A DNA stretch of 64,000 bases from a virus. Taxonomy: Duplodnaviria > Caudoviricetes. Shown here piece after piece: positions 2,914-64,000 of this stretch (position 1 is its first letter; each line of letters starts with the position of its first letter). Both the position numbers and the translations under genes were made by a program. Below the pieces are notes generated by a model. That model did not search any database, was not told the DNA's origin, and saw only the letters and a list, made by a program, of their open reading frames with translations. Location: positions 64,001-128,000 of the IMG/VR virus record IMGVR_UViG_3300048591_000242; one strand, written 5' to 3'.

Positions 2914-3312
2914 ATGGTAGCAAATATAGGTATAAACGTACACATAGGTAAGTTCAAAAAGGCTATAGCAGATAAGGTATTAGATTATAAAGACGCTATT
3001 TATTTAGGCTTTATAGATATTCTAGTATGTACATACTCTGAAGAATCCATGAAAGAAATACCAGTATATCCCTTGGATAGAAGTCATAGTCCGTTAGCTG
3101 TTTTACTGGACATTGAGTTAGAGGCATTAAACGCAGGTATGGCCCCTAGAATGGCTAAGAACGTAAGTTCTCTATTTAGGCTATTTATGGACTCCTGTAC
3201 CGAGTCTCCTCCTAGGACAGTGAGTTATAGTTGTACTAGAGGCAGCGACGGTACATTACTTATTTATACCAAACTAAATGGAATCTACGTTTCTTTTAAA
3301 TTCTCATATTAA
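2914..3312 (+). CDS. hypothetical protein
   Basis: ORF with RBS AGGAG, downstream of the promoter motif. Confidence 0.7.
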   Translation: MVANIGINVHIGKFKKAIADKVLDYKDAIYLGFIDILVCTYSEESMKEIPVYPLDRSHSPLAVLLDIELEALNAGMAPRMAKNVSSLFRLFMDSCTESPPRTVSYSCTRGSDGTLLIYTKLNGIYVSFKFSY

Positions 3313-3328
3313 CCACAGGGGTATTTGT

Positions 3329-3721
3329 ATGTCTAGGGCGGTGCTTAAGGTAATTATGCGTGAACTAAAGGAGAACATCATAAAAGGAGAAGAGGCAAAG
3401 GAAAAGGAATATCTTTTAAATGAAATAGATCTGTGGCTTTCCACTATAACTGAAGATAACCTTAACAAAGAATTAAATAGTAAGGTTCGTTATATAAAGG
3501 ATATATCCAACCTTACCACCACCATAAAAACCGAATTTGAATCTGTCGATATAGACAAGGATGTGGCTGATAAAGCTTCCTGGTATGTAGATCAGTTATT
3601 AACCTTAATGCTATTGCATGCGGACGTTATCGGCTACAGCATAGTCAGTAGTATCAGATATAAGTCGGTTACGTTACGTATACTTACCGATAAATTCGTT
3701 GTAGTGCTTAGGTTTATCTAG
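3329..3721 (+). CDS. hypothetical protein
   Basis: Track ORF 3278-3721; likely start at MSRAVLK after a GGGG RBS. Confidence 0.6.
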   Translation: MSRAVLKVIMRELKENIIKGEEAKEKEYLLNEIDLWLSTITEDNLNKELNSKVRYIKDISNLTTTIKTEFESVDIDKDVADKASWYVDQLLTLMLLHADVIGYSIVSSIRYKSVTLRILTDKFVVVLRFI

Positions 3722-3791
3722 TATGAGGGAAGGGTCAAAAATAACAAACTTTGGTTATAGTTTGCTACATTAATCGTTAAGAGGAGGTTAA

Positions 3792-4028
3792 GTGAAATCA
3801 CTAATCGGGTTCTCTAAAAAGATATTGTCCAATCATGTATGGACAGTTTTTTTAATATCTTTAGTTTTATTTATCTACAGCGCTATCACTACGATAGCGG
3901 CGGTAACTATGTACTCTAAACTGGATGCACTTAGCTTAGAGAAGGAGAACATAGTCTCTTTAAAAGAGGAATTAGAGGTATGTTACAACAACGAATACAG
4001 TAAACTTCTAACCACATTAAAAGAATAA
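3792..4028 (+). CDS. membrane protein with C-terminal coiled coil (possible i-spanin-like)
   Basis: GAGGAGG RBS, GTG start, TM helix followed by a heptad-like segment. Confidence 0.55.
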   Translation: MKSLIGFSKKILSNHVWTVFLISLVLFIYSAITTIAAVTMYSKLDALSLEKENIVSLKEELEVCYNNEYSKLLTTLKE

Positions 4029-4043
4029 ACGGGTATAGTAATC

Positions 4044-4442
4044 GTGAAAAAAACAATACTAGCTGCTTTACTGGTAACTACAACTACCAGTTGCAGCGTC
4101 ATAAGGGTAGAGCCAGAGCCCTTACTTAGTCCACAGCCAATAAATATCTCAATAACCTTACAGATCGAAGAGGCAGATCGTCCGGTAGTTCAAGCAGCAT
4201 CAGATCCACCAGCAGTAATGGAAAAGATAGTAACCAAAATAGAGTATGTATCTAAACCGGTGTGTACACACCTTAAAGATATATACTCCCTAGAGCCATT
4301 TACATTAGAAGAAATCTCTTTAAATGGTGAAGCGGATAGATTGCGTTATCTTAAGTTACTTATAGATAGGGTAAATCTAGTGGATGGTATTATTGCAGGG
4401 GCTAATAACAATGTCGAGTGCAGAAAGCAGTTACAAAAATAA
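4044..4442 (+). CDS. putative lipoprotein (possible second o-spanin-like)
   Basis: MKK + hydrophobic stretch + TTSC lipobox-like signal, Pro-rich N-terminus. Confidence 0.55.
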   Translation: MKKTILAALLVTTTTSCSVIRVEPEPLLSPQPINISITLQIEEADRPVVQAASDPPAVMEKIVTKIEYVSKPVCTHLKDIYSLEPFTLEEISLNGEADRLRYLKLLIDRVNLVDGIIAGANNNVECRKQLQK

Positions 4443-6294
4443 AATAATAGTAATGGACTGGATTAATGGCACGGTTACGGAGTATGCCGATTTAGAAGAA
4501 GCTTCTAAAGGGACTGGGTTATCCCTAGAGGAAGTTAAAAATGCTTCTAGTAGAAACAAAGCTATTATTTATAGGGATTTGGTTATCTACAAGGAGGGTA
4601 CTGCCCATAGTAGAACCAATATAATTAAAGCGACTGCTAAGTTAAAGGAGCTTCCTATAGAAAGATCTTTGGTCTATCAGCAGGAAGGTTCCAGTAAGTG
4701 GTATATAAAACCACTTAAAGACATAGCTAGATGTGTAGAGGTAGATCCTACACAACTAATGAAGAAAGTAAAAGAGGTTTCCCCTAAACCGCTATCTGGC
4801 AAATATATACGGGAAATTTGGGAAGTCGACTTAACTGAAACAGAGGCTATATTAGTGGGTAAATGTGATCACGGTGGGATGGATTTATCGGAAAAAGATT
4901 CGGTGTTTCAGAATACCCTAAACAATACTCCTTTACCGGGAGAAGTAGCTTCTGAAATTACTTTCTATGTAGACGGTTCTACCGCCCCTACTAACCCTGG
5001 CCCATCAGCATTTGGGATATGGGGAGAGGATAGCAATGGCAACTTCTACAATAGTTGGGGATATGTAGGGGACATGGAGACTAATAACCGAGCAGAGATG
5101 TTTGGCTATATACGTCTACTCGAATCCGTGCTACATTACGGATGGAAAAAGGTAACTGCATTTTTTGATAGTAAGTATGTATTAGATAATGCTACTCGTA
5201 GTTTACCTAGATGGAAGAACAACGGTTGGAAGAAGGCAGATGGTGATATTATTTCCAATCGGGAGCAGTGGGAGAGAATAGCCACATTACAAGAAGCAGT
5301 TAAAGCCATGGGCATAACTGTAACTCATCGCTGGGTAAAAGGACATAGTGGTGATCCAGGTAATGAAGCTGCCGATGTAAATGCTAATAAGGGTAGAATG
5401 GCTGGCTTAGCAGGTAATACCGACCCTGTGTTTCTTATAGAAGAAGCTAAAGTAGGAGAAGAAGAAACCTCTAAGATTAAGAAAGTTAAGATACCGCCTT
5501 GCAATAAACTTATTAATGGTAAGCGACTTATCTTTACTACCAAGACACCGCCTTGTACCGCAGATGGCAGATTCATATACCTTGTAAACTCATTTGAGGG
5601 AGGTGTAGAAAAGACCGGTAGATTTATAGGTAAGCCTGCCAGCGATAACATGTATGGCGTAGTACTTACTAAGGAACCTATCCCACAGCTACAAGCTATT
5701 ATTTCTTATCAGAACAAAATTACTCCTGGAGACTTTGTACAACCAGTAGTAGGTATTCTAGATAGAATAGTAAGACCAGCTAACTGGGAGATGCTTACTA
5801 CTTATGGCAATACCCATTTATGTCATAACCGATTAAACATAACCACCGTAGATAAGGAGCCACTTACTCTATATCAAAGACCCGCTAGATTAGCCTATGA
5901 TGCTATAAACATTCTATCAGTTATGCTAGATAGATTAGAGCGATTTATGTCTAACGTCAAATATCAGTCTGAGGATTACGTAGATATAACCGATAGCATA
6001 TATACCGTTAGCGGTAAGAAGATATCTTTACTAAATACCATAGGTAGTGGATCTAAGTCTATAAACATAGATCTAGACTATCGCGGTAAGAAGTTAACTT
6101 TAGCGTTATCTTTGGGTATAGATTTACCTGATAGAAATAGCTTAAGTGGTATAGCTAAACAGAATAAGGAAATTACTGTAAGCTTACTTAGATATGACTC
6201 TGGCGCTGCCGGTTTCAGATATGCAGTGGCATTTAAAACAGAAAACGATTACGCTCTATATAGTACGTCAATGGCTAACATCAAGGCAGTATAA
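4411..6294 (+). CDS. rnhA: ribonuclease HI (phiKZ gp155-like) with N-terminal extension
   Basis: RNase H motifs 'FYVDGS', 'TNNRAEM', 'FFDSKYV', 'WKNNGWKKADG..ISNREQW', 'WVKGHSGDPGNEAAD'; the start position is uncertain. Confidence 0.9.
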   Translation: MSSAESSYKNKIIVMDWINGTVTEYADLEEASKGTGLSLEEVKNASSRNKAIIYRDLVIYKEGTAHSRTNIIKATAKLKELPIERSLVYQQEGSSKWYIKPLKDIARCVEVDPTQLMKKVKEVSPKPLSGKYIREIWEVDLTETEAILVGKCDHGGMDLSEKDSVFQNTLNNTPLPGEVASEITFYVDGSTAPTNPGPSAFGIWGEDSNGNFYNSWGYVGDMETNNRAEMFGYIRLLESVLHYGWKKVTAFFDSKYVLDNATRSLPRWKNNGWKKADGDIISNREQWERIATLQEAVKAMGITVTHRWVKGHSGDPGNEAADVNANKGRMAGLAGNTDPVFLIEEAKVGEEETSKIKKVKIPPCNKLINGKRLIFTTKTPPCTADGRFIYLVNSFEGGVEKTGRFIGKPASDNMYGVVLTKEPIPQLQAIISYQNKITPGDFVQPVVGILDRIVRPANWEMLTTYGNTHLCHNRLNITTVDKEPLTLYQRPARLAYDAINILSVMLDRLERFMSNVKYQSEDYVDITDSIYTVSGKKISLLNTIGSGSKSINIDLDYRGKKLTLALSLGIDLPDRNSLSGIAKQNKEITVSLLRYDSGAAGFRYAVAFKTENDYALYSTSMANIKAV

Positions 6295-44659: not shown

Positions 44660-45667
44660 TTAATCCCATAATTCTTTAATTGTAAAATTTTTAACCGCCA
44701 ATGTACCCATGTGCTGCAGTCTTCGATACATTGAATCTCTGGTTATGTTTAATCTAGACATGATCTCCGAAAATTTAGACACACCAAATTCTTTAGTCTT
44801 ATTATCATACCAAAAAATAGGTCTATCATGATCTTTGTTTTTCATTAGCCTGCTCGCCGCTACAACATCCTCTCTCGATGGTAAGTCATCTTTGTGAATT
44901 AAAAAAGTATAATAATAAATTCCTCTAATCTCAGGCAAACCTCTAGAAAGATATGCTTTTATTCCTTTATATCCTGTAATATTTTCTGCTTCTCTTATAC
45001 TAGCGGCTATTATCTTTCCCCCAGTTAACCAATTATGAATCAGTATTCCAGTACGATAATTTCTTTCGCCATATATAAAATCATCCCACGGGCTATCATC
45101 TCCTGCATCCTTGATCAAATATCTTCCATAAATAACACCTTGAGAGTTTTTACGCAGCTCTGAGACTAATCTACTATGAAATGTACCTATAAATCTGGCC
45201 CCATCTGATAAAGAAGAGAAGTGTCTGGTTAAACCTGTCTTTACGTCCTTAATAAGAATAGGTCTTGCATAGTTTGAATTTTCTAATTCAGTACAAGAAT
45301 GCATGGTGTTTTCTCTTTGAGTACACCATTCCAGATTTTCAGGAGTATTGTTCGATCTATCTCCGTCTTTGTGATTTACATCTAACTTTCTTCCACAAGG
45401 AGGTGGTCCGTAGAAAGCAAACATAACTACACGATGAACTAAAACTGATTTACTTATTTTGTTTTTTTCACCGCAAAAGGTTTTAAACTGTCGGTAACCG
45501 TTAGAAAGTGTTCCGAAAGTCTTTTGACCCTTTTTCCTTATTTTATTTTCAGAAGTAGTTAGATAAACTATTTCGCCTCTTGAGGATACTGCCACTTCAG
45601 GATGTTTACTACTAAGGAAAAAACCGGGGAAATCTTTAGATTCTACAGGTTTGAATTTATTACTCAT
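44660..45667 (-). CDS. free-standing HNH homing endonuclease (NUMOD4-HNH-NUMOD1 type)
   Basis: 'VHRVV..AF', 'VNHKDGDRSNNTPENLEWCTQRENTMH', C-terminal NUMOD1-like repeats; GAGGT RBS before ATG 45667. Confidence 0.9.
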   Translation of the reverse strand: MSNKFKPVESKDFPGFFLSSKHPEVAVSSRGEIVYLTTSENKIRKKGQKTFGTLSNGYRQFKTFCGEKNKISKSVLVHRVVMFAFYGPPPCGRKLDVNHKDGDRSNNTPENLEWCTQRENTMHSCTELENSNYARPILIKDVKTGLTRHFSSLSDGARFIGTFHSRLVSELRKNSQGVIYGRYLIKDAGDDSPWDDFIYGERNYRTGILIHNWLTGGKIIAASIREAENITGYKGIKAYLSRGLPEIRGIYYYTFLIHKDDLPSREDVVAASRLMKNKDHDRPIFWYDNKTKEFGVSKFSEIMSRLNITRDSMYRRLQHMGTLAVKNFTIKELWD

Positions 45668-56640: not shown

Positions 56641-58428
56641 TTAATTAAATACCTTATAGGTAAGTATTCTTAGCGTACAGTATATTAGACATGCTATACG
56701 GGTAGAGGCCAGTATACCTGAATGTTTATTAGAGATAGCATTAGTTACTACATCTGTTACTATATCCCTAACCTCCAAAATATCTTGATTGGTAAGCTGT
56801 GAAGATCTATACATGTTTCTTAACTTCACAACCATAGCGGTTAGATTAACGTTCTCTCCAGTATTTACTCGTCGGTATTCTGTTATATAGATAACTAAAT
56901 TACGTATTAGCTTTTCTATGTCAGGCTTATTTCTCTTACCAAAGTTAGCTGGTATTTCCTCTAATGCTTTAGTAAGAAAACGTTTATCTGCGGTAGGTAC
57001 TAATATTAAGGTCTGTTCAACTAACTCGCTACGTATAAAGTCGTTTCTGTCCTTAAAGACCTCAATGCTATTGCGTATGAGAGCGTCTGCGTTATTCTCA
57101 TACTCACGCATTACTCTTTCACCATCTTTAGTAATAAACTTACTTTCAGATAGTACCCTAACATCGGCATCCCTAAGACGCATATATTCACTAGTTAATT
57201 TCTTTATAACTTCCCGTATTCTGGACTGTATGTCTGTAACCACATACATTACTTTTGGGTCGTTATCAAATAACTCTAAGGTCGCTCTATGTACGCTACT
57301 GTCAGACAGGATATCTAGTGATCTAGCCATTACTAAGCCACCCCAGTTATGGTGTTTCTTAAGTAGACTCTTTCTACTAAGAGACTCATATAAAGCTAAA
57401 GCTATAGCCTCCTGGCTCTTATGTGGGAAGAAGTGCCCTAATAGCGACGAAAGAAACTTGTAATGCAGCATCTTAAAAATAGCTAACAAGGCCGAATCTC
57501 TTTCTTTACTAGACAAAGAGTCACTGTTTATAAAGCGATGCGCTAAATATACAAAACTCATATTTACTGGAGACTTACCAACCACACCATATTTGTTGAC
57601 CTCTTCTACGTCTCTGAAGTCATCAGTTAGCTCTTCCCATTCTTCTATCTTAAGGATGTCTTCTATCCACTCACCCTCGTCATCATACGTATATTTAATG
57701 CGGTATATGCCTAACAGATTACTACCTAGAAAATTAATGTGTTCTTCATTTCTGGTTTCAAATCCAGTTACAAAAGAAACTACCTTTTTAGCTAAAGATG
57801 AGTCTATGTCTAGATGTGAAAAGTAATTATCAAATACATCCTTTATCGAGTTACCGGAAGACTTAAGATTCTCAAAGGACGGATTTACATGATGTACTAC
57901 ATGTACACCCTTTGGTACAGTGTAGTCACCTGGGTTTACTTCATTCTCCAGACTCTGTGATTCTGGAAAATGCCATATAGGTAACTCACCTAAAACGTAT
58001 CTGCCTTCATAGAAGCTAGAAATAGAATGCTCGTGTGCCCTTAATTTAGGTACGTACGCTAGCAACATCTTTATAGCTGGAGTAATTATAATTTCAGCTA
58101 CTTTAATTAAGTGTACTGGGTCGGTACACCAGATTACGTTGGTAATGGTAGTGTCTCCTACCAGATAGTTGGCATCTAGATACTTACTATCTAACCTTCT
58201 AAAGGTATCTCTTACTGGAGAATATACAGAGAAGCTCATACCGGCTGGAGGTAAGGTATCTAGATCTATATGTGCCGCCAGGATAGCTTCATTTATTGTT
58301 GGGCAAAAGGGTATCCTGGGCTTGTTACTTTCATCCAACCTTTTAAATTTTTCAGGTACTTCTGGAACGAAGGGATAAAGCACGGATAAGTCGTGGTTCT
58401 CAGAAATATGAAATAGTTTAATAGCCAT
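56641..58428 (-). CDS. virion structural protein (phiKZ gp32-like) with an extra N-terminal domain
   Basis: The C-terminal ~400 aa ('NEEHINFLGSNLLG', 'HYKFLSSL..HFF', 'YESLSRKSLLK', 'VTDIQSRIR') match the remembered family; the ~160-aa N-terminal domain ends at a S-L-E site. Confidence 0.65.
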   Translation of the reverse strand: MAIKLFHISENHDLSVLYPFVPEVPEKFKRLDESNKPRIPFCPTINEAILAAHIDLDTLPPAGMSFSVYSPVRDTFRRLDSKYLDANYLVGDTTITNVIWCTDPVHLIKVAEIIITPAIKMLLAYVPKLRAHEHSISSFYEGRYVLGELPIWHFPESQSLENEVNPGDYTVPKGVHVVHHVNPSFENLKSSGNSIKDVFDNYFSHLDIDSSLAKKVVSFVTGFETRNEEHINFLGSNLLGIYRIKYTYDDEGEWIEDILKIEEWEELTDDFRDVEEVNKYGVVGKSPVNMSFVYLAHRFINSDSLSSKERDSALLAIFKMLHYKFLSSLLGHFFPHKSQEAIALALYESLSRKSLLKKHHNWGGLVMARSLDILSDSSVHRATLELFDNDPKVMYVVTDIQSRIREVIKKLTSEYMRLRDADVRVLSESKFITKDGERVMREYENNADALIRNSIEVFKDRNDFIRSELVEQTLILVPTADKRFLTKALEEIPANFGKRNKPDIEKLIRNLVIYITEYRRVNTGENVNLTAMVVKLRNMYRSSQLTNQDILEVRDIVTDVVTNAISNKHSGILASTRIACLIYCTLRILTYKVFN

Positions 58429-61403: not shown

Positions 61404-61715
61404 ATGGCTAGAAACTCAATTTCTATTTACGGCTGCGGTGGATTCGGCATCAACATCGTCCGTAACTTTGTGAATATTCCAGATGACCCGGAGCGGCAAC
61501 TGTATCCAAAAACAAGCATTCATGCCATTGACACCAGTGACAGTAATTTGGGCGCTTCACACAATGACATCAAGCACCATGTGGTGCCCGGAATCGACGG
61601 TGCCGGTAAAAACCGTAAACGTGCGTATGAAGCTACGCTGCCGCACATTGCTACAATACTTAACGATCATCGGCCGGGTATATTCAACGTCGTCATATTC
61701 TCAACATCAGGTGGT
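61404..61715 (+). CDS. phuZ: PhuZ/TubZ phage tubulin, exon 1 (104 codons; the rest lies beyond the window)
   Basis: 'IYGCGGFGINI' (T1 loop), 'IDTSDSN', 'DGAGKNR', 'FSTSGG' = start of the T4 signature (GGGSGS in PhuZ); homology stops at GGT GGT (61710-61715). Confidence 0.9.
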
Positions 61716-61836
61716 AAAGTGATACATTAGTATCCATAGCCTGCTACAGCAGTGATGTTGTAGTAATCGTCTCCTAATTGCGGGAAACTCCTTCCTGTCC
61801 AATATTATGTTCACTAACATAACAAAGGTCAGGCAA

Positions 61837-62487
61837 ATGTCTAATTTTGAAACAAGAGTATGTTCGTATTGCAACAATGAGTATACGAATATTTATCGAG
61901 GACCACACGATGTGAAGGGATACACAATACCTACTTCATATTGTAGTAAATCATGCGCCGGAAAGGCGAAGGGTCCTATACTAGAAGATAGAGGTAAAGA
62001 AAACCTTAAGGCCGAAGCTTTGCAGTGCATTGAAGCGGCAGGTAGGTATCTCACTAAAGAAGAAATCTTAACTGAGGTTAAATGTTCTTCAAAAACACTT
62101 ACTAAACATGGTATTAAAATATCAGAACTAAATGCTGAATTAGGTTTCATTAAACCACGTTCAGTTTTTGAAGGTAAGGTGGGTAGGATACTTAAGGATA
62201 AATTTTCAAATGTAGAAAGTGAAAAAACATTTGAAGGTTTAACCGCACCAACAGGTTATCCCCTTAGGGTGGATTTTTATATACCCGAACTTAATCTAGT
62301 AGTTGAGGCCGACGGTTTACAACACTCCGATAAAAAACATCCATGGGCCACTCATCCCAATGGTACTGTCCGGGAATACGACGAAATCAAAAACAAATTC
62401 CTTCGTGATAATGAAATTGATCTTGTGCGTATTCCGTATAGTAAGAATGTTACTCCTGAAAGTGTTTTGGATAAATTAGATATTTGA
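61837..62487 (+). CDS. intron-encoded homing endonuclease 1 (PD-(D/E)XK/EDxHD, Vsr/DUF559-like) with N-terminal Zn finger
   Basis: CSYC...CSKSC, helical middle region, 'LRVDFYIPELNLVVEADGLQH', 'YDEIKN..LRDNEIDLVRIPY'; lies between the two P4 strands. Confidence 0.85.
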   Translation: MSNFETRVCSYCNNEYTNIYRGPHDVKGYTIPTSYCSKSCAGKAKGPILEDRGKENLKAEALQCIEAAGRYLTKEEILTEVKCSSKTLTKHGIKISELNAELGFIKPRSVFEGKVGRILKDKFSNVESEKTFEGLTAPTGYPLRVDFYIPELNLVVEADGLQHSDKKHPWATHPNGTVREYDEIKNKFLRDNEIDLVRIPYSKNVTPESVLDKLDI

Positions 62488-62709
62488 GAGCATTATATAC
62501 CAAGCTAATATCGAAAGATAAGTAGTGGCCTGACTAACTATCAGGGTATGGTAAAAATTATAATGATTGGACAATCCGCCGCGAAGCTTCTCTATGCTAA
62601 AGCAGTGAAGTGTGCTCAACGACTAACCCACTAACCAGGGTGTAGGGTACTAGTGTATCCGAAATGGAGACTGTCTTTAATCGACTAAAGTTTAATTATC
62701 AAAAATCTC

Positions 62710-63990
62710 GTGGGGGGATTTTTGATTCTGGAGGTGTTTATAGAAAAGTGGAAACTTGTAAAATTGGCACCAAATTATGAAATATCTAGCTGTGGAAAAG
62801 TTAGAAGAGTTAAAGATCACTACCATCTAAAAATTGGTATAGACAGATATGGTTATAATAAAATACATCTAATAAAAAATGATGGATCTAATTATTACAC
62901 AACCATACATCGTCTAGTGGCTATTGCTTTTGTAGATAATCCAAATAGATATACTCAAGTTAATCACAAGGATGGCAATAAAGCAAACAACCACTATACC
63001 AACCTGGAGTGGTGTGACGCAAAACACAACGTTATCCACTCGTATGTGAATGGATTAAACAACAACAGGCTACCCGTTATACTAAAAGATTTAAATACCG
63101 GCTATAAAAAATCTTTTATCTCAATAAAAGAAATGTGTAGATATTTAAATTTGAAACCAAATGTGGTTACTCCTTATATCAAAATATCCCACAAATACCC
63201 TTTTATGGGGAAATACGTAATTGAGGCCGATGAGACTGCTATAAAAGGTATATCTAATAGTAAATCACATGGTGTTGATTGTTATGTTTATGATCATGTC
63301 TCTTGCAAACTGACCAAATATCCAAGCATCAATATGGCTTCGTATTTTACAGGAATTAGAGGGCTATCTAATTTATCTAAATACAGTCCTATTAATGTTG
63401 CTGGATATACAGTAAGCAAAATAAGAGAAGAGTGCGTGTCTGATAAACACAAAATAAGTCTTACCTATGCATCTGAAAAGAGGGAAAAATATCACAGCGT
63501 TTCATACACCCAAAGATCAGACGAGGGATATGAGACATATGACTATTATACAGGAAAAACTGTATGGCACAAGGACAGAGACTGTGTTAGGGACTGGATA
63601 AACAAACACAGGGTCATATCCACCTTGCCCATAGAAAGCGATAACGTTAACGTAGCGGTATCTAGTTCTAAGAAAAATAGCAGAACATGTCTTCTTAGGG
63701 GCTATGGGGTAAGATCACTACTTCATGGTTTTGAATGGTTTCCTTATACGGAGGAAGTTATTTTATCAAACATGTATAATAGAAAATTCATTACTAAGTG
63801 TTTTAAGCTAAAAATGTGTGGCAAAACTGAAATAGTATTTGGCCTTCCGGCATTAGCTAAAATATTAAATGCGCCGCATGACATGCCTTTTAACAAAATG
63901 TCTGTTACGTATTTAAACTCGTTGCTAAACGCACCCCACGAAAGCGTAGAGCGACTTAATAACATAGTCGATTTAAAGATAAAGATATAG
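62710..63990 (+). CDS. intron-encoded homing endonuclease 2 (NUMOD4-HNH-NUMOD1 type)
   Basis: 'EKWK....NYEISSCGKVR', 'IHRLVAIAF', 'VNHKDGNKANNHYTNLEWCDAKHNVIH'; enclosed by P8, with the last codons overlapping P8 3' and J8/7; start uncertain. Confidence 0.9.
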   Translation: MGGFLILEVFIEKWKLVKLAPNYEISSCGKVRRVKDHYHLKIGIDRYGYNKIHLIKNDGSNYYTTIHRLVAIAFVDNPNRYTQVNHKDGNKANNHYTNLEWCDAKHNVIHSYVNGLNNNRLPVILKDLNTGYKKSFISIKEMCRYLNLKPNVVTPYIKISHKYPFMGKYVIEADETAIKGISNSKSHGVDCYVYDHVSCKLTKYPSINMASYFTGIRGLSNLSKYSPINVAGYTVSKIREECVSDKHKISLTYASEKREKYHSVSYTQRSDEGYETYDYYTGKTVWHKDRDCVRDWINKHRVISTLPIESDNVNVAVSSSKKNSRTCLLRGYGVRSLLHGFEWFPYTEEVILSNMYNRKFITKCFKLKMCGKTEIVFGLPALAKILNAPHDMPFNKMSVTYLNSLLNAPHESVERLNNIVDLKIKI

Positions 63991-64000
63991 TCTAGTCTGC

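Follow-up and report, generated by a model that had tools for sequence, protein, structure and literature searches.

A group I intron in the phuZ gene of a jumbo phage carries two endonuclease genes of unrelated families

The DNA analysed here is a window of 64,000 nucleotides, corresponding to bases 64001-128000 of a viral record (IMG/VR record IMGVR_UViG_3300048591_000242) that is 202 kb long and has terminal repeats. In this window the gene for the phage tubulin PhuZ is interrupted by a group I intron that contains two open reading frames (ORFs). ORF1 is a Vsr-like endonuclease gene in the periphery of P5, and ORF2 is a NUMOD4-HNH endonuclease gene in P8. Sequence comparisons support the view that the two genes belong to unrelated nuclease families and have separate histories. 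On balance, the best explanation of the data as a whole appears to be that ORF2 is the long-standing resident homing enzyme for phuZ, and that ORF1 is a later invader which targets the intron's own P5 DNA. Coordinates refer to the window unless a contig is named, and are collected in Table 1.

The intron interrupts phuZ within the stretch that encodes the tubulin signature loop (GGG↓SGS motif; arrows mark junctions), and the joined exons read ...FSTSGG↓SGSVLGPL.... It is preceded by U and its terminal base is G (GGU↓A...AACG↓A). The 3' end lies 64 nt past the end of the window, and this part was read in L001, a locus extract that reaches beyond it. We infer that the intron is spliced and that splicing restores PhuZ, because joining the exons restores the PhuZ profile exactly. 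The same record encodes a chimallin homologue (C1:140856-141797) in addition to PhuZ, and the phage is therefore assigned to the nucleus-forming type of jumbo phage. Its PhuZ has only about 30-38% identity to PhuZ of cultured phages, and many cultured relatives have intronless phuZ alleles in which the motif is conserved. On this evidence the tubulin gene, too, is a host of introns in nucleus-forming jumbo phages, with the insertion at the sequence for its GTP-binding signature.

ORF1 lies in the P5 extension, between both strands of P4. Its family comprises approximately 97 protein clusters, all of 200-230 amino acids and aligned end to end. The cysteines of the zinc ribbon (C9, C12, C36 and C40; CxxC...CSxxC), which is FCS/L24e-like, are invariant. 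Residues D146, E157, D159, H163 and D182 are invariant in 24 relatives and K185 is likewise listed as invariant, while E112, the first glutamate of the EDxHD set, is E or Q. Residues 108-216 of an AlphaFold model (pLDDT 91) were compared with known structures at the level of the domain using VIA-align. This domain matches Vsr (1CW0; Z 9.2 over 100 residues, rmsd 3.0), the catalytic domain of I-Bth0305I (3R3P; Z 9.2, 90/98 residues, rmsd 2.8) and the DUF559 protein 3HRL (Z 9.0). A Foldseek search with the whole three-domain model was uninformative and returned mostly metallo-beta-lactamase noise. The single ORF1 sequence had no match among PDB sequences, and a profile searched against the PDB gave only weak matches to DUF559 and L24e zinc ribbons and none to 3R3P. 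The initial annotation of ORF1 as an EDxHD/PD-(D/E)XK nuclease thus holds at fold level (Z 9.0-9.2), but strict membership of the family is not proven by sequence. Vsr-like (EDxHD-type) enzymes are the least-studied family of homing endonucleases, and the combination of zinc ribbon, helix-turn-helix (HTH) and Vsr-like nuclease is a new domain architecture for it.

The start codon of ORF1 is directly preceded by a hairpin, and equivalent hairpins of other sequence occur in the related introns of L004, L007 and L012. These hairpins come from folds of single sequences; RNAalifold applied to a MAFFT alignment of the 5' flanks gave a meaningless structure. The hairpin over the ribosome-binding site of ORF1 probably limits translation from unspliced RNA.

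ORF2 matches PHROG 59 (E 4e-37) and I-HmuI (1U3E, E 1e-14), with the catalytic HKDGN..NN..NLEW..HN residues conserved. Among Pfam families, NUMOD1 reaches its cut-off and HNH_3 and NUMOD4 fall just below theirs. Homologues of approximately 410 amino acids form more than 40 clusters and align over 98% of ORF2. Candidate start codons in frame are GTG 62710, TTG 62722 and GTG 62734, the first two of which lie within a predicted hairpin (Table 1). These domain matches, together with the P8 stem that encloses the gene, bear out the proposal that ORF2 is a NUMOD4-HNH gene looped out of P8. Both ORFs also look intact on the sense strand, as had been noted, with frames open over the full lengths of their families and catalytic motifs kept. 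Elsewhere in the window, an HNH paralogue of ORF2 with 28% identity is found in a 353-aa open frame on the minus strand (44957-45448, C1:108957-109448).

Two distant phages, L095 (a 208-kb contig) and L094, contain phuZ introns at the identical site, directly after GGTGGT, with the ORF2 homologues P0103 and P0099. In both, the HNH gene is enclosed by a covarying P8 stem and there is no second endonuclease gene. These introns have no space for ORF1 because the HNH gene follows exon 1 at a distance of only about 300 nt. The HNH proteins are 37-40% identical to ORF2, and PhuZ exon 2, measured for L095 only, is 32% identical to that of our phage. A search for related loci with PhuZ exon 2 found no viral contigs, and the phuZ introns were reached through the ORF2 homologues instead. 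Since introns at the same phuZ site hold only an ORF2 homologue, in P8, we regard ORF2 as the probable resident.

Relatives of ORF1 (about 50% identity) are always situated between CCUU, just after J4/5, and GAGAGC, and their stop codon overlaps GAGAGC. L004, a PhiKZ-like phage, has an ORF1 relative alone in P5 of an intron in a DnaB-like helicase gene. In L007, a phage of approximately 189 kb found on dozens of contigs, an intron (L007:2970-4986) splits an RNA polymerase beta-prime-like gene (cluster P0047) at GGD↓YDGD. This intron contains an HNH gene in its 5' region (3029-3907) and an ORF1 relative in P5 (4001-4672). An intron in a 1279-aa gene without a family match is present in L020-L023 (positions 3870-5640; IMG/VR sample 3300045988), and it contains a relative of ORF1 in P5 together with a LAGLIDADG gene of the two-motif kind in P8. 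L023 has this LAGLIDADG gene with its frame intact, whereas the copies in L020, L021 and L022 are frameshifted at runs of A, which may reflect decay or homopolymer sequencing error. Two introns with no ORF in P5 keep the site uninterrupted, and it reads CCCCUGAGAGC in PhiPA3 and UCCUUAGAGC in Vibrio phage JA-1. The JA-1 intron has an HNH gene in P8 only, and the RNA polymerase intron of PhiPA3 has no ORF.

The introns of L004, JA-1, PhiPA3, L095/L094 and our phage have in common a core with P7.1 and P7.2, the S element AAGAUAUAGUC and two points of ORF insertion. A survey of relatives had been suggested in the initial annotation, and it revealed one scaffold with no ORF, with an ORF in P5 only, in P8 only and in both places. 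Introns with two genes, besides ours, are those of L023 and L007, where the partner genes are others. Double-endonuclease introns recur, because ORF1 relatives share the P5 spot whether they are alone or beside a LAGLIDADG or HNH gene. The double state has arisen with three different partner genes.

A sign of recent movement of ORF1 comes from X1, an aquaculture metagenome run. It contains 93% of the sampled 31-mers of ORF1 and 19% of those of the whole 3.4-kb locus, and one 2.1-kb contig from it extends from phuZ exon 1 across the intron into the beginning of exon 2. The contig is nearly identical to our phage over one block (2 of 756 positions differ, 99.7% identity), the 3' end of which lies 4 nt past the ORF1 stop codon. 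Directly after the block, 9 differences fall within 90 nt, and from there to 63179 the identity is about 83%. On its upstream side, 195 nt that cover the last part of exon 1 and the initial 20 nt of the intron fail to align at 80%. Since X1 matches the locus closely nowhere else, our phage is not in that run and the contig is not a chimera with it. The pattern is the one expected if ORF1 was recently copied between diverged phuZ introns with a short 5' co-conversion tract and, as judged from the alignment, it does not fit homing of the whole intron. ORF2 of the X1 relative has a net deletion of 636 nt, in which 652 nt (63180-63831; L001 3281-3932) are replaced by 16 and the frame is kept. This represents either a shorter form of the HNH enzyme or incipient decay. 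The two nearest candidate start codons of ORF2 are GTT and ATC in this relative.

The shared P5 point in introns of other genes, the uninterrupted sites, the exchange of the X1 block and the P5 location of I-Bth0305I in its own intron (PMC3239194) all point to ORF1 as the invader. They agree with the earlier suggestion of two independent invasions: the genes have separate histories, the orthologous introns have the HNH gene only and the exchange of the ORF1 block did not include the remainder of the intron.

We hypothesise the following sequence of events. ORF2, an I-HmuI-like HNH enzyme and probably a nickase, would cut intronless phuZ at the conserved GGTGGT↓AGTGGA and so drive homing of the whole intron. 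ORF1 would recognise the ORF-less P4-P5 DNA of the intron (...CCUU↓GAGAGC...) and copy itself into introns of this subfamily. It would do so regardless of the host gene and of the endonuclease already in the intron. Splicing would remove both genes and restore PhuZ. A more tentative extension is that the ORF1 family may represent Vsr-like homing endonucleases that insert at conserved P4-P5 DNA of one phage group I intron subfamily, each a parasite of the intron and not of the host gene. If this is true, the family spreads across genes and phages, and turns ORF-less or single-endonuclease introns into double ones.

Several observations weigh against this history. The P5 extension of our intron is of the JA-1 type and not of the L095 type, so the history of the intron is more mosaic than a single insertion. 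The prototype I-Bth0305I (EDxHD, PDB 3R3P), which is encoded in P5 of the recA group I intron of Bacillus phage 0305phi8-36, cuts the host recA gene and not its intron (PMC3239194); this is the chief ground for caution about the targeting of introns by ORF1. ORF1 relatives could each target their own host gene and have inherited the P5 position. The mosaic in X1 is a single 2.1-kb metagenome contig, and could have come from ordinary recombination of co-infecting phages with a crossover at the end of the ORF by chance. ORF2 has no ATG, and an ATA (62740) stands at the position of the orthologues' ATG, 5 nt after GGAGG. Finally, a search of sequencing runs found no RNA-seq run that holds the locus.

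It seems unlikely that both enzymes act on intronless phuZ, the HNH enzyme nicking and the Vsr-like enzyme cutting nearby, in cooperative or redundant homing. HNH enzymes of the I-HmuI type are nickases and ORF2 is similar to them (for nicking homing enzymes see PMC12908238), I-Bth0305I cuts its host gene beside the intron insertion site (PMC3239194), and neither gene looks damaged. However, orthologous phuZ introns persist with the HNH gene alone and ORF1 relatives occupy the same P5 point in introns of unrelated genes. The ORF1 block was, moreover, exchanged without the exons or the remainder of the intron, unlike in whole-intron homing. Of the two outcomes first envisaged for the pair, two enzymes with different targets fits the data better, and double-cutting fits less well.

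About as improbable is the idea that one gene is a decaying relic, with ORF2 poorly or no longer translated or ORF1 inactive, and that the double state is a snapshot of gain, decay and loss. The missing ATG of ORF2 would be explained in this way, as would the deletion and changed start codons in the X1 relative and the frameshifted LAGLIDADG genes of L020-22. In our phage, however, both frames are open over the full family length, the catalytic motifs are intact (H..N..H of the HNH domain and D146/E157/D159/H163/D182 of ORF1), and an in-frame GTG (62734) and the GGAGG box are present.

Less probable again is that one enzyme may be mainly a weapon which cuts the genomes of co-infecting relatives, by analogy with PhiPA3 gp210, an intron endonuclease acting against a co-infecting phage (PMC11620839). 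The phage encodes chimallin and PhuZ, as do phages of the nucleus-forming kind where this has been shown (PMC11620839), and intronless phuZ alleles would be available as targets in many cultured relatives. Any homing enzyme cuts intronless alleles, however, and interference would then be a consequence of homing that needs no separate mechanism; it also leaves the fixed P5 position of ORF1 in many introns unexplained.

The pairings and alignments show a single predicted ribozyme core of an IA2-like group I intron. Core elements were located by eye and by alignment to relatives scored by Rfam RF00028 (PhiPA3 RNA polymerase intron, 79 bits; L004 intron, 61; JA-1 intron, 33). The intact locus gives only a partial match to this model (36 bits), because the two ORFs split it. 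Coordinates of short strands were read from sequence and pairing, as a naive motif search misplaced P7 and P7.1 (L001), P4 (L095) and P9 (L094). P2, P3, P7, P7.1, P7.2, P8 and the P1 extension hairpin keep their pairing through sequence changes in L095, L094, PhiPA3 and JA-1. The core stretch 62573-62673 aligns with the orthologous L095 intron across 119 nt at 75% identity. In P1 only three base pairs are formed with the exon, and the U at the 5' exon end pairs with the guide G. GCUAC, an early guess for the internal guide sequence (IGS), was dropped when this sequence proved to be P2. The P4 strands GCGGG (61780-84) and UCCGC (62575-79) span ORF1. The P8 stem that encloses ORF2 has 12 bp with one bulged U, and the P7 3' strand begins with the ORF2 stop codon. 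A match to RAGATH-34 (Rfam; 62643-62762), which overlaps P7.2-P8 and the ORF2 leader hairpin, scored 27.6 bits against a cut-off of 60.7 bits (E 0.3) and was taken as chance.

The large total length of 2349 nt and the two ORFs might suggest a pair of introns, separate or nested, with one endonuclease gene apiece, but this is highly improbable: there is one P, Q, R and S set only and no second complete core, P3 and P4 span ORF1 while P7 and P8 span ORF2, the JA-1 and PhiPA3 introns are colinear with our core after removal of the ORFs, and less than 45 nt on the 5' side of ORF1 and approximately 0 nt on its 3' side lie outside the host core. Since the ORF1 insert consists of a 40-nt hairpin and the coding region only, it cannot accommodate a second ribozyme. 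The single core claimed in the initial annotation, for which nested introns had been named as the contrary outcome, is therefore upheld by folding and alignment.

The detail of P5 is different from that first proposed. The pairing exists, with 61796-61808 and 62560-62573 as its exact coordinates; it has a predicted energy of -13.5 kcal/mol and is the strongest available to that 5' strand within the intron; shuffled sequences reached it in 0 of 500 and 7 of 1000 cases. In the relatives, however, P5 is formed by UCC/GGA or CCC/GGG, and P5a involves the strand that directly follows the ORF. The X1 relative has the changes 62492 A>G and 62564 U>C, which turn an A-U pair of P5a into G-C and would break the helix first proposed. 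The 5' strand of that helix lies inside the ORF1 leader hairpin, and competes both with the hairpin and with P5/P5a. In a construct lacking the ORF, hairpin and P5a together fold 3.9 kcal/mol better than the first proposal. The complementarity is thus real, but the relatives' P5/P5a, the compensatory change in X1 and the overlap with a conserved hairpin make its role doubtful; comparison favours the helix 62491-97/62559-65, and the helix first proposed is probably not the conserved P5 helix. Speculatively, it might form as an alternative state, for instance to draw the two ends of the insert close to each other. ORF1 is in the P5 periphery with either pairing.

Along its entire length, the P5 extension (62488-62572) shares 79% identity with that of the JA-1 intron, which has no ORF there. 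We considered that the extension had been swapped in together with ORF1 and rejected this, as the extension in X1 is as diverged as the rest of the core. For the same reason the extension pre-dates the recent exchange of ORF1.

Table 1. Positions of features of the phuZ locus and its intron in the window
Feature	Position	Strand	Basis or remarks
phuZ exon 1	61404-61715	+	PHROG 4733 tubulin PhuZ, profile positions 1-101, E 8e-29; ends ...FSTSGG, GGU GGU, U at -1
Group I intron	61716-64064 (2349 nt); in-window part 61716-64000	+	exon profile junction; single P/Q/R/S set
P1 extension hairpin GAUAC/GUAUC	61721-61734	+	same layout with different hairpin sequences in orthologues L095, L094
Guide sequence GCC	61739-61741	+	pairs with exon GGU 61713-15, in our phage and both orthologues
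Block near-identical to X1 relative	61736-62491	+	
P2 CUACAGC/GUUGUAG	61744-61763	+	covaries in L094 (CUAUGGU/GCCAUAG) and PhiPA3 intron
P3 5' strand CGUCUCC	61768-61774	+	partner 62666-62673 across ORF1; covaries in L095, L094, JA-1, PhiPA3
P element AAUUGCGGGAAA	61776-61791	+	P4 5' strand 61780-84, J4/5, P5 5' strand UCC 61789-91; RF00028 consensus via relatives
Hairpin directly 5' of ORF1 start codon	61794-61833	+	-11.8 kcal/mol, z -3.4; AAGG/CAGG ribosome-binding region in 3' arm
5' strand of P5 pairing first proposed	61796-61808	+	partner 62560-62573; strong, non-random, not conserved in relatives
ORF1, 216 aa	61837-62487	+	ATG 61837; zinc ribbon, helical HTH domain, Vsr-like PD-(D/E)XK nuclease
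P5 peripheral extension	62488-62572	+	P5a CAUUAUA 62491-97 / UAUAAUG 62559-65; P5 3' strand GGA 62569-71
Q element AAUCCGCC	from 62573	+	P4 3' strand at 62575-79
P6/P6a	62581-62615	+	core alignment with relatives
R element UCAACGACUA	from 62616	+	includes P7 5' strand GACUA 62621-25
P7.1 and P7.2	62626-41 and 62645-60	+	between P7 and P3 3' strand; both covary in L095, L094, PhiPA3
P3 3' strand	62666-62673	+	pairs with 61768-74
P8 5' strand UCUUUAAUCGAC	62674-62685	+	pairs with 63967-63979; equivalent 12-13-bp stems of different sequence in L095, L094
10-bp hairpin AUCAAAAAUC/GAUUUUUGAU	62698-62727	+	read from sequence; covers upstream in-frame GTG 62710 and TTG 62722
ORF2, ~416-426 aa, NUMOD4-HNH-NUMOD1	62710/62734-63990	+	I-HmuI-like, long C-terminal region
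S element AAGAUAUAGUC	from 63982	+	common to related introns
P7 3' strand UAGUC	63988-63992	+	pairs with GACUA 62621-25 across ORF2
phuZ exon 2 (SGSVLGPL...)	from 64065 (L001 4166)	+	PhuZ profile positions 102-299

At least three further group I intron signals are present in the same phage, at C1:62545-62805 (RF00028, 76 bits), C1:144233-144611 (41 bits) and approximately C1:55484-55673 (10 bits), the last of which contains an exact S element. An HNH paralogue of ORF2 (C1:143403-143759) adjoins the 41-bit signal. The P5 regions of C1:62545-62805 and C1:144233-144611, the two that were inspected, do not contain the CCUU↓GAGAGC site. A 595-aa ORF on the minus strand of the window (56641-58428) matches PHROG 2921, a family of unknown function, with E 2e-97, and is not the chimallin homologue.

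It has long been asked how group I introns came by their endonuclease genes. According to the standard view, free endonuclease genes entered introns containing DNA similar to their targets, but natural intermediates are rare. The introns described here provide a full series on one scaffold (no ORF, P5 only, P8 only and both) and a pair of phages in which the P5 gene moved recently while the remainder of the intron did not. Together these make the idea of intron invasion testable by simple cleavage assays. The literature we searched, the coverage of which was incomplete and is not proof of absence, describes no phage intron with two endonuclease genes, and a recent review of these phages describes no phuZ intron.

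ORF1 is similar to I-Bth0305I in several respects. Both are encoded by an ORF in P5 of a phage group I intron, and both combine a C-terminal Vsr-like nuclease with an N-terminal part that binds DNA. ORF1 has a four-cysteine zinc ribbon and an HTH in place of the NUMOD repeats, and its motif VDF...VEADGxQH is closer to that of DUF559 (3HRL). Unlike I-Bth0305I, it shares its intron with a second endonuclease gene, and its proposed target is the intron and not the host gene.

ORF2, I-HmuI of the SPO1 DNA polymerase intron (1U3E) and PhiPA3 gp210 are all intron-encoded enzymes of large phages. ORF2 is approximately 2.4 times longer than I-HmuI, with an uncharacterised C-terminal region of 270 amino acids. 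It differs from both I-HmuI and gp210 in that it lies in P8 of a phuZ intron and lacks an ATG start.

In organelles, introns with two homing endonuclease genes are already known. Fungal mitochondrial group I introns, for example in Chrysoporthe, contain two such genes, sometimes of different families (PMC4894602), and movement of ORFs between ORF-containing and ORF-less fungal introns has been proposed in work cited in PMC7487136. The fungal introns combine LAGLIDADG and GIY-YIG genes and are found in organelles, whereas ours is a phage intron with Vsr-like and HNH genes (LAGLIDADG in relatives). Another fungal mitochondrial intron with two ORFs is nad1-i4 of Podospora. Compared with these fungal introns, the phage series adds sequence evidence of recent transfer of an ORF alone.

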